Source: an uncultured Bacilli bacterium (lineage in GTDB: Bacteria; Bacillota_I; Bacilli_A; RF39; UBA660). From it: a stretch of DNA of 64,000 bases. The stretch spans positions 90,984 through 154,983 of the forward strand of contig CAKOJR010000001.1 in assembly GCA_934090735.1 (NCBI GenBank), written 5' to 3'. Every line of letters begins with the position of its first letter. Positions within the stretch are counted from its first letter, which is position 1. The notes under the pieces were generated by a model, which made no database searches, had not been told where the DNA came from, and saw only the letters and a list, made by a program, of their open reading frames with translations. Both the position numbers and the translations under genes were made by a program. This document shows, piece by piece, positions 31,743 to 33,242 of this stretch.

Positions 31743-33242
31743 ATGGGAATTAATGGAGAGTTTTTTCTAAAATTTTTAGAACCGTTTTTTAACGGCTTGG
31801 TAGCATTTTTTAAAGCAATAGGTGCTGCTTTAGTGAAAATATTTAATATTGCAACGTATTTTGATATTATAAGTGAGTATAAAGCTAAGGGTAGTAGTAC
31901 TGTAGTTATAATACTTGCTGTGTTATGTCTTGTTATATTGTTTGCAGTAATTGCTTTATTAATATTTTTATTAGTAAGAAGAATTATTAAGTGGCGTCAT
32001 AATGTTGCTCATCATGAAAAGATGGTTGAGGAAATAGAAAACTTAAATAATGATATTGTTCGTTTAAGGAATGAAAATCAGAAGTATATGGAGATGGCTA
32101 ATCCAGATGCTGGTGTTGAGTATGATGAGGATGGTAATATTACTAATAAGTTAAGTGAGGGCGAAAGTAGATTCTTTAAACTTACACAAATTGATGAAAG
32201 ATATAAAGATTATGTTGCTCCAGAGTTAAATGAAACAATTTCACTTAATGAGTTATGTGAAACATTTAGAAACTTTTCAGCGAGTAAGATGAAGTTATAT
32301 TATTCTATAGATTTAATTAGACTTTATATTGCATCATTTGCATCAAATAGACTTATTATTTTACAAGGTATTTCTGGTACAGGTAAAACATCACTTGCTT
32401 ATTCATTTGGTAACTTTATTAAGAATGAAGCAGTAATTGCTAGTGTTCAGCCATCTTGGAGAGATAGTACAGAATTATTTGGTTATTTCAATGAATTTAC
32501 AAAGCGTTTTAATGAAACAGAAGTTTTAACTAAGATGTATGAAGCTAAGTATAACCCAAAGATCTTTATTACATTGTTAGATGAGATGAATATTTCTCGT
32601 GTTGAGTATTACTTTGCACAAATGTTATCTATTCTAGAATTACCTAGTACAGATGAATGGGTATTAGAGCTTGTTCCTAATGCTTGGGATAATGATCCTA
32701 AATTAATTGATAATGGTCGTTTACAAATTCCAGATAATATGTGGTATATTGGTACAATTAATAATGATGACTCAACATTCATGATTACAGATAAGGTATA
32801 TGATCGTGCTATGCCAATTAATATTGATACTAAAGGTGTTGCTTTTGATGCACCTGAAACTGATGCGATAGATATTACTTCTAAATATTTCTTATCATTA
32901 TTTGATAAGGCTAGAGAAGAACATCCAGTAAGTGAAAAGACAATGGATAATCTTGCAAAGATGGATGATTATGTTATTGAACATTTCCGTTTAGCTTTTG
33001 GTAATCGTATTGTTAAACAGTTAAAAGATTTTGTTCCAGCATATATTGCTTGTGGCGGAGAAGAAATTGTTGCAGTTGATTATTTAATTGCTAATAAGAT
33101 TTTAAGAAAATTTGACCAATTAAACTTAGCTTATATTCGTAATGAAATTGATGGTTTTGAGGCTTATTTAGATGAGTTATTTGGTGATGGTAAAATGGTT
33201 GAATGTAAGGCATTTTTAGAAAGACTTAAAAAGACAATATAA
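31743..33242 (+). CDS. Membrane-anchored McrB-like AAA+ (AAA_5) NTPase
   Basis: N-terminal hydrophobic helices (aa ~10-40 and ~52-78) followed by RRIIKWRH, then a coiled-coil. Walker A LQGISGTGKT (nt 32367-32390), VQPSWRDSTELFGYF, Walker B-like ITLLDEMNISRVEYYF, and NMWYIGTINNDDS (an NxxD-like motif as in McrB). Confidence 0.75.
   Translation: MGINGEFFLKFLEPFFNGLVAFFKAIGAALVKIFNIATYFDIISEYKAKGSSTVVIILAVLCLVILFAVIALLIFLLVRRIIKWRHNVAHHEKMVEEIENLNNDIVRLRNENQKYMEMANPDAGVEYDEDGNITNKLSEGESRFFKLTQIDERYKDYVAPELNETISLNELCETFRNFSASKMKLYYSIDLIRLYIASFASNRLIILQGISGTGKTSLAYSFGNFIKNEAVIASVQPSWRDSTELFGYFNEFTKRFNETEVLTKMYEAKYNPKIFITLLDEMNISRVEYYFAQMLSILELPSTDEWVLELVPNAWDNDPKLIDNGRLQIPDNMWYIGTINNDDSTFMITDKVYDRAMPINIDTKGVAFDAPETDAIDITSKYFLSLFDKAREEHPVSEKTMDNLAKMDDYVIEHFRLAFGNRIVKQLKDFVPAYIACGGEEIVAVDYLIANKILRKFDQLNLAYIRNEIDGFEAYLDELFGDGKMVECKAFLERLKKTI

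Follow-up and report, generated by a model that had tools for sequence, protein, structure and literature searches.

McrBC is the textbook modification-dependent restriction enzyme, and a membrane-bound descendant without a nuclease shows this module reused beyond DNA cutting. Here we describe a candidate for such a descendant, the McrB-like GTPase p499, whose gene lies at positions 31743–33242 (+) of a 64-kb stretch of DNA, referred to below as the window, from an uncultured Bacilli bacterium (contig CAKOJR010000001.1). The gene, which starts with ATG and encodes 499 residues, is the second of four in a predicted operon, p378–p499–p365–p428. An initial annotation of the window, made from the sequence alone, had drawn attention to this open reading frame (ORF), and both the ORF and the segments quoted from it are present as described. 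The explanation that we favor, and to which we give an even chance, is that p499 powers a membrane machine that derives from McrBC, no longer restricts DNA and serves envelope or surface proteins or fibers.

In Escherichia coli McrBC (PDB 6hz4, 6ut6 and 7vsr), an AAA+ GTPase acts with a partner that contains a DUF2357 domain; the core motifs of the former are found in p499 and the domain of the latter in the protein encoded downstream, p365. However, the E. coli GTPase carries an NxxD signature in place of the NxD of p499 and a DNA-binding N-terminal domain where p499 has a membrane anchor, the PD-(D/E)xK nuclease of McrC has no counterpart in p365, and the operon in the window contains two extra conserved genes. 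Two features that define McrBC restriction, a nuclease and a reader of modified bases on the GTPase, are thus missing from the p499 operon.

Bell et al. 2024 (eLife, PMC11090510) define a major branch of McrB proteins by the NxD motif, usually followed by E or a second D. The same paper names CoCoPALM, a large clade in which an NxD McrB GTPase is fused to an FtsB-like transmembrane (TM) segment and coiled coil, places it next to a McrC homologue that in most cases contains a coiled coil, and links it to signal peptidases and pilus assembly; the clade receives three sentences, being named without analysis and deferred to a later publication (PMC11090510). A full-text search found no later paper that uses the name CoCoPALM. 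The p499 operon is like CoCoPALM in its NxD GTPase with an N-terminal TM segment and coiled-coil-like stretch, in the DUF2357 McrC homologue that begins 22 nucleotides (nt) downstream, and in the signal-peptidase-family genes that flank relatives of p499 (56 of 83 loci). It differs in that the 64 kb of the window hold no signal peptidase, p428 standing in the slot beside the McrC-like gene, in that p378 precedes the GTPase, and in that the coiled coils are short. This comparison is with the brief published description only. The architecture of p499 is therefore not unprecedented, the CoCoPALM clade having already been named by Bell et al. 2024, and the p499 operon is a signal-peptidase-less, four-gene variant of this named, uncharacterized kind.

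Two further groups of systems invite comparison. The CoCoNuT proteins CnuB and CnuC and the PADLOC candidate defense system PDC-M26 share the NxD branch with p499, their McrC homologues often have no active nuclease, and PDC-M26A matches the p499 nucleoside triphosphatase (NTPase) domain. Unlike p499, CoCoNuT GTPases are soluble, have long coiled coils and are always found beside HEPN or other nucleases, none of which is present at the operon in the window, and the partner proteins of p499 match no PADLOC model. The SipW-TasA and SipW-BsaA fiber operons of Bacillus and Clostridium perfringens (PMC11580942 for BsaA) resemble sister loci of the p499 operon in pairing archaeal-type SipW-like peptidases with anchored secreted proteins. 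They differ in that no McrBC-like motor is known in the operons that have been studied, that the window has no SipW, and that the secreted families of the sister loci match no TasA or camelysin Pfam model. Literature searches for PDC-M26 or for McrB with SipW returned nothing relevant.

A predicted membrane-anchored GTPase of the McrB clade

The NTPase of p499 had been proposed to be McrB-like, with the caveat that it might instead cluster with AAA_5 proteins of the MoxR/dynein type. Comparison with solved structures came out for McrB. The best PDB match of the single p499 sequence is E. coli McrB (E 1.7e-4, residues 199–372), which is the sole match below E 0.01; the other matches, to FliL, Geminin and aspartate aminotransferase, are weak (E 0.03–0.95). 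The family profile likewise retrieved McrB at E 1e-6 and nothing else at E≤0.01. As only McrB is matched among solved structures, from the single sequence and from the profile alike, the p499 NTPase is not of the MoxR/dynein type. Pfam AAA_5 is matched by all 15 relatives in our alignment and falls below threshold in p499 itself (17 bits, gathering score 22), while the strongest match in the libraries searched is PADLOC PDC-M26A, which covers the NTPase only (E 4.5e-41).

The motifs expected of an enzyme of this kind are present. Walker A, GISGTGKT, is encoded at 32367–32390 (+) and corresponds to G209–T216; Walker B, LLDEMN, at 32574–32591 (+) includes D280 and E281; and the N-N-D-D segment at 32760–32771 (+) lies within the signature G-T-I-N340-N-D342-D343-S-T. 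Walker A, the Walker B residues D280 and E281, R286, E288 and R355 are invariant in the 15-member alignment. Across 143 representatives, the signature has N at its first position in all 143, then any residue, then D in 142, followed by a second D in 109 or E in 30. By its sequence, then, p499 is a McrB-type NTPase with Walker A, Walker B and signature residues intact, and its signature corresponds to the NxD variant that defines a major McrB branch in Bell et al. 2024.

The annotation had further described two long hydrophobic stretches near the N-terminus, of which only the second holds as a clear TM segment. On the Kyte-Doolittle scale (19-residue window), the second stretch, V54–V78 (31902–31976, +), reaches a maximum of 3.6 and is also supported by homologues. 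The hydropathy of the first, F11–F34 (31773–31844, +), peaks at 1.85; its hydrophobic moment is high, and it contains the charged residues E13, K24 and K32. p499 has one certain TM helix, and the first stretch is a marginal TM segment or an in-plane amphipathic helix; in relatives with two TM segments, the position that matches residues 11–34 is a strong TM. The strong helix is directly followed by the basic RRIIKWRH (R79–H86), as against EYKAKG on its other side, in keeping with the positive-inside orientation that had been suggested. An NTPase needs a cytoplasmic location to see GTP, and the positive charge on the C-terminal side of the helix places the NTPase of p499 there. We conclude that p499 is, as far as its sequence can tell, anchored in the membrane with a cytoplasmic NTPase.

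A heptad-like segment had been noted after the anchor, and the spacing is indeed there when the sequence is read by eye: residues E92–M118 (32016–32096, +) show a 3-4-3-4 pattern of hydrophobic positions, M94/I98/L101/I105/L108/N112/Y115, amounting to about 3.5 heptads or about 27 residues and suggestive of a coiled-coil stalk. L101 is almost invariant in the 15-member alignment, and the segment gives weak matches to the coiled coil of Geminin. The strong TM is found in all 120 of the closest homologues (61–92% identity, 491–646 residues), and the N-terminal 130 residues can be aligned over their full length from residue 1 in the 15 members, down to 32% identity. Since the strong TM recurs in close homologues and the N-terminus aligns across the 15 members, the layout of the anchor is not a chance feature. 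The N-terminal 185 residues consist of hydrophobic helices, the heptad stretch and a linker, and match no DNA-binding family in Pfam or NCBIfam. The proposal that the DNA-reader domain of McrB has been replaced is accordingly borne out, with a membrane anchor and a short heptad stalk in its place.

Residues 47–167 also gave a likeness to FliL (NCBIfam E 2.8e-5, 23.8 bits against a cutoff of 187; PDB 9hmf, E 0.034), which was rejected because it reflects the composition of a TM segment followed by a charged helix and has the wrong topology.

The FtsB-like character ascribed to this kind of anchor raises the question of a role in cell division or envelope growth, in which an FtsB/DivIC-like anchor would recruit the GTPase to the divisome. 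Bell et al. call the N-terminal domain FtsB-homologous (PMC11090510), Pfam DivIC is weakly matched in two of the 15 aligned relatives (best E 0.012), and the four-gene block lies near a penicillin-binding protein (PBP) gene in the related locus L001 and near FtsW in the window. However, p499 itself has no DivIC or FtsB match in Pfam, neither the PBP gene nor FtsW is a conserved neighbor of the block, and the neighbors that are conserved encode signal peptidases and secreted proteins rather than division proteins. We consider a division factor improbable.

A McrC-like partner without a nuclease

p365, encoded at 33265–34362 (+), is McrC-like by virtue of a DUF2357 N-terminal domain alone (Pfam, E 2e-7, with 31 bits where 23.3 are required), followed by a weakly conserved helical tail. 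In an alignment of 31 members of its family, all invariant residues, including those of the YENRF, PIRKTN and LW motifs, fall within residues 86–243; the remaining 120–130 residues or so are helical, rich in K and E, and poorly conserved. No nuclease was matched in p365 in Pfam, NCBIfam or PADLOC, and nothing is conserved past residue 243. The family profile did not find McrC in the PDB, so membership of p365 in the McrC group rests on the Pfam DUF2357 match. Clostridial relatives of p365 have coiled-coil tails and a total length of 720–870 residues.

A membrane tether had been taken to imply a different input and possibly a different substrate for the NTPase. This idea is strengthened by p365, as the McrC homologue downstream keeps only DUF2357 and has no nuclease. 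The order of the operon is p378–p499–p365–p428, with all genes on the + strand and gaps of 16, 22 and 9 nt, and p499 is co-transcribed, in this predicted operon, with a nuclease-less protein consisting of the McrC N-domain.

Distribution and gene neighborhoods of the GTPase

An exhaustive search of representative proteins returned 8181 clusters with a threshold of E≤1e-3 and 728 with one of E≤1e-30, and the best 150, at 50% clustering, were examined. TM segments precede Walker A in 87 of these (one in 29, two in 16, three in 12, four in 29 and seven in one); 55 have none and carry long N-termini (median 448 residues before Walker A), consistent with the CoCoNuT type, and eight are fragments. 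In a scan of one genome per species, at least 596 species were matched. Nearly all carriers among the matches listed are uncultured gut or rumen Bacilli (‘Tenericutes’/RF39-like, Erysipelotrichaceae) and Clostridia (Oscillospiraceae, Acutalibacteraceae, Christensenellaceae, Ruminococcus). Searches of plasmids and phages gave distant relatives only, with similarity confined to the NTPase domain, and the TM form was not seen.

Neighborhoods were compared by calling ORFs in 83 loci and clustering the neighbors. The DUF2357 gene follows the GTPase gene in 80 of the 83, and the three exceptions are loci whose sequence breaks off soon after the GTPase. A p378-family gene is found at position −1 in 43 loci. 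A SipW-like signal peptidase gene lies within two genes of the GTPase in 56 loci, 26 of them with the gene at −1 and 29 with it at +2; one example reaches 79.5 bits with TIGR02228, whose cutoff is 51.85. The +2 slot that the SipW-like peptidase holds in those 29 loci is occupied by p428 in the window, and a p428-family gene is found there in 18 of the 83 loci, which form the window's own sub-group and have an S26-like gene nearby in only five cases. Loci of types B and C contain as many as eight additional genes, whose secreted products bear an N-terminal anchor that ends in ‘…TYAWFT…’. These neighboring secreted families (F3, F5 and F13; F4, F6, F7 and F8) are mutually related (hhalign, 90–99.7%), and F3, at 18.1, falls just short of the cutoff of 19 set for the SipW-dependent signal peptide model. 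Across Bacillota, the pair of GTPase and McrC-like protein travels with SipW-type (archaeal/endoplasmic reticulum-type) signal peptidases and multiple anchored secreted proteins.

Some of these loci are elaborate. L056 (5767–16525, OV788638.1) and L026 (338–14079) hold two or three SipW-like genes, one of them apparently without the catalytic GSM motif, together with six to eight secreted proteins that belong to mutually related families absent from Pfam, all with the ‘…TYAWFT…’-type anchor and one with a CBM26 starch-binding module. The two clusters look like an undescribed surface-fiber or adhesin gene cluster.

No other gene of the block is as well conserved as that of the GTPase: between the window and L001 it is 76% identical, as against 46, 59 and 61% for the other three genes. 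The window is mainly composed of housekeeping genes, such as those for SufB, RNase J, FtsW, PriA and a class II aminoacyl-tRNA synthetase, and reading of the translations adds infC-rpmI-rplT and carbamate kinase; genes for spore germination and for a Fic-domain protein are also present.

This pattern of conservation bears on whether the operon is an anti-phage system of the McrBC/CoCoNuT lineage stationed at the membrane, in which p428 would sense phage adsorption or injection, p499 and p365 would transduce the signal, and abortive infection would follow through membrane damage or an effector, perhaps p378. The GTPase does descend from a Type IV restriction GTPase, its strongest library match is the candidate defense protein PDC-M26A (E 4.5e-41), the 55 TM-less proteins with long N-termini among the best 150 representatives fit the CoCoNuT type, and p378 and p428 have changed far more rapidly than the GTPase, with only 154 detectable homologues of p378. 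Against this stand the stable synteny with signal peptidases and secreted proteins across orders, the position of the block among housekeeping genes, the absence of the TM form from the plasmids and phages searched, and the 50–76% identity of the GTPase across Bacilli and Clostridia, which is unusually high for a defense gene. Moreover, no nuclease, HEPN, pore-forming or other recognizable effector domain was found in the four proteins, and p365, p378 and p428 have no PADLOC match. We regard a defense function as unlikely, although less so than a function in division.

The flanking proteins p378 and p428

p378, encoded at 30590–31726 (+), is predicted to be cytoplasmic and to consist of a helical domain at the N-terminus and, at the C-terminus, a β/α TIM-barrel domain that resembles EAL domains. 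It matches no family by sequence, Pfam EAL being absent in all 38 members of its family. The AlphaFold2 (AF2) model has a pLDDT of 85.6, and nearly all of its top Foldseek matches are EAL domains, including that of FimX (E 1e-3 to 1e-1; TM-score about 0.46–0.51 per target); the family profile, in turn, matches a designed TIM barrel (E 4e-5). p378 is homologous to the −1 gene of type-B loci (hhalign, 98–99%), and three sub-families are linked by hhalign at 98–99.6%. The residues with which EAL domains bind metal and cyclic di-GMP, namely those of the EAL, DDFG(T/A)GYSS and EGVE motifs, are not conserved, and no acidic residue is invariant across the 38 members. The model thus suggests a degenerate EAL-like β/α barrel behind a helical N-domain. 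Degenerate EAL proteins of the FimX type are similar in the predicted barrel and in the lack of conserved catalytic residues, a trait of receptor-type EAL domains; they differ in that the fold match of p378 is weak and has no counterpart at the sequence level, and binding of cyclic di-GMP is pure conjecture.

Two other identities were considered for p378. A true EAL enzyme is ruled out by the lack of conserved catalytic residues, and a HEPN or other nuclease was rejected on the basis of the missing Rx4-6H motif and the lack of any match.

p428, encoded at 34372–35658 (+), is a bitopic membrane protein according to Kyte-Doolittle hydropathy, AF2 and Foldseek. Its predicted layout comprises a cytoplasmic α/β domain (residues 15–88), a TM segment (96–124), extracellular DxDxDG repeats (127–262) and a jelly-roll domain (300–427). 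The repeats have conserved D, G and Cys columns in the alignment and are modeled at low confidence; the C-terminal β-jelly-roll is modeled confidently and retrieves CBM61, BcsB, FlhE and PA14 in Foldseek (about E 1e-4). On the strength of the model, p428 is most probably a surface protein. An assignment as a TasA-like or SipW-cognate protein was not retained: hhalign to the secreted families gave 34% at most, the NCBIfam SipW-cognate model and Pfam were unmatched, and the Foldseek folds are generic CBM/jelly-roll folds. A ‘GATYYGIKY’ segment at the TM region and a ‘PG…F.I.N…Y.L.L’ strand pattern look like those of SipW-cognate proteins by eye only, and are kept as a lead.

Elsewhere in the window, a 624-residue protein (47756–49630, +) has an N-terminal domain homologous to the C-terminal jelly-roll of p428 (E 2e-7). 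It is paralogous to a 737-residue surface protein (7512–9725, +) that contains DUF6273. Homologues of these two surface proteins adjoin the GTPase block in several related loci, the one in L002 having 692 residues.

A model for the p499 machine

The observations above have led us to propose that p499 drives a membrane machine that works on envelope proteins. Under this proposal, p499 would form a hexameric ring, as in E. coli McrBC, with six TM anchors and short coiled-coil stalks to hold it beneath the membrane. p365 would insert into the ring and stimulate GTP hydrolysis, and the work so released would be spent on processing, extracting or assembling signal-anchored surface proteins or fibers. 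In the variant found in the window, p428 may be the client or a partner, its cytoplasmic N-domain docking to the motor and its Ca-binding repeats and jelly-roll facing outward, while p378 could serve as a regulatory or adaptor subunit, possibly a nucleotide sensor.

An envelope motor accords with a GTPase that is better conserved than the rest of its block, has been matched in at least 596 species, sits among housekeeping genes and has only distant relatives on plasmids and phages. It is further in line with the SipW-like peptidases of 56 of the 83 loci, with the likely surface location of p428 and with Bell et al. 2024, who independently connect the clade to signal peptidases and pilus assembly (PMC11090510). 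Several points weigh against it. It is from E. coli McrBC that the hexamer, the insertion of the McrC-like protein and the mechanism of pulling have been extrapolated. The nearest soluble relatives of p499 are CoCoNuT-type candidate defense proteins. The secreted families of the sister loci match nothing in Pfam, TasA and camelysin included, and tblastn searches of the 64-kb window (E≤0.01 and 1e-3) found neither an S26/SipW-like peptidase nor the cognate secreted families; the envelope link at this locus consequently rests on p428 and on the relatives of the operon. The jelly-roll of p428 has no significant similarity to the secreted families (hhalign ≤16%), and p378 resembles EAL domains only weakly (Foldseek E about 1e-3, with no Pfam EAL match in 38 members).

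A more elaborate version of the envelope motor is correspondingly more tentative, and we would sooner doubt it than accept it. Here, a McrBC pair would have been repurposed as a GTP-driven motor, an energy source so far unrecognized, for the processing or assembly of SipW-type fibers or adhesins in Gram-positive gut bacteria, and the window would hold a minimal four-gene version in which p428 would be a Ca-binding surface protein and the direct client, p378 a degenerate EAL-like subunit and possible second-messenger input, and an upstream PGK RNA motif, an orphan structured RNA, the control of expression. If the SipW link is functional, it would name the missing energy-consuming component of a Gram-positive surface-fiber pathway and offer a four-gene minimal system. 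The family is very widespread, mostly in uncultured gut Bacilli and Clostridia: its members fall into thousands of protein clusters, and at least 596 species genomes carry them. Defense finders keyed to the NTPase, such as PADLOC PDC-M26A, are likely to mislabel these loci.

Operon boundaries and the upstream region

The 472 nt upstream of p378 contain promoter-like sites and a PGK RNA motif (Rfam RF03040; 30377–30467, +), which is matched over its full length at 81.8 bits (gathering score 50.8, E 2e-11). Just 3' of the motif lies a low-GC hairpin, ACTAGTTAT/ATAGCTAGT, followed by T7 (30491–30524, +). Read from the sequence, this element is terminator-like; it went uncalled by the consensus scan because it has only two G-C pairs, and it is invariant in the window, L001 and L005. 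A promoter-like site, TTGCAA-N17-(TG)TATAAT (30536–30564, +), with an extended −10 and 10 of 12 positions matched, is recognized by consensus only; it ends 26 nt before the p378 start, is followed by a GGTAGG ribosome-binding site, and its hexamers are kept in L001 and L005. The 3' boundary of the operon is marked by a terminator-like hairpin at the p428 stop codon (35657–35674, +).

The genes upstream of this region (22411–30117, +) form a Tad/Flp-like set that encodes an RcpC/CpaB-like protein, a CpaF-type ATPase and two TadB/C-like membrane proteins, and is preceded by DUF5411, a 238-residue ORF and a 1134-residue secreted protein without a family match. The p499 operon could in principle be an accessory of this adjacent pilus system, as the Tad-like genes share its strand and stop 472 nt before it, and the published clade name refers to pilus assembly. 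The adjacency is nevertheless coincidental, and we give the accessory role next to no weight: none of the 82 other loci has a Tad gene near the GTPase, and a terminator-like hairpin (30114–30133) closes the Tad-like operon after the TadC-like stop, ahead of the promoter-like sites that precede p378. In addition, the PGK motif and the operon are kept together in L001–L005 behind entirely different upstream genes. We reject the Tad link on account of the lack of Tad genes in the 82 other loci and the terminator between the two gene sets.

The PGK motif is found upstream of the operon at 8588–8680 in L001–L004 and at 8570–8659 in L005, despite the different genes that precede it. In the closest relatives, L001 (6599–8347) and L002 (6269–8347), a HerA/FtsK-like ATPase (DUF87) and a 692-residue protein stand directly upstream of the motif in place of the Tad genes. 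Among 32 verified metagenomic PGK motifs, however, only about eight precede the four-gene operon, which rules out a dedicated leader of p378–p428. The other copies, by reading of the downstream genes, precede Fic together with TypA/BipA, small membrane proteins, a large surface protein, and RmuC- and EzrA-like genes. The PGK motif is a lineage-wide element.

Other features of the window and of related loci

In some metagenomic contigs, two PGK motifs lie about 1.2 kb from each other. In related metagenomic contigs, Fic proteins similar in size to the 374-residue Fic-domain protein of the window (17080–18204, +) are what the genes downstream of the motif most often encode; the copy in the window has no PGK motif before it. 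In the related locus L007, the GTPase block is preceded at 5748–6047 by group II intron domains (RF02001 at 131 bits; RF01998). Finally, GerAB-like permease, GerAC-like lipoprotein and GerAA-like genes, identified by reading the sequences, lie at 36614–40002 (−) in the window; these three spore-germination-type genes mark the organism as a spore-former, despite the ‘Tenericutes/Bacilli’ metagenome-assembled genome labels of its relatives.

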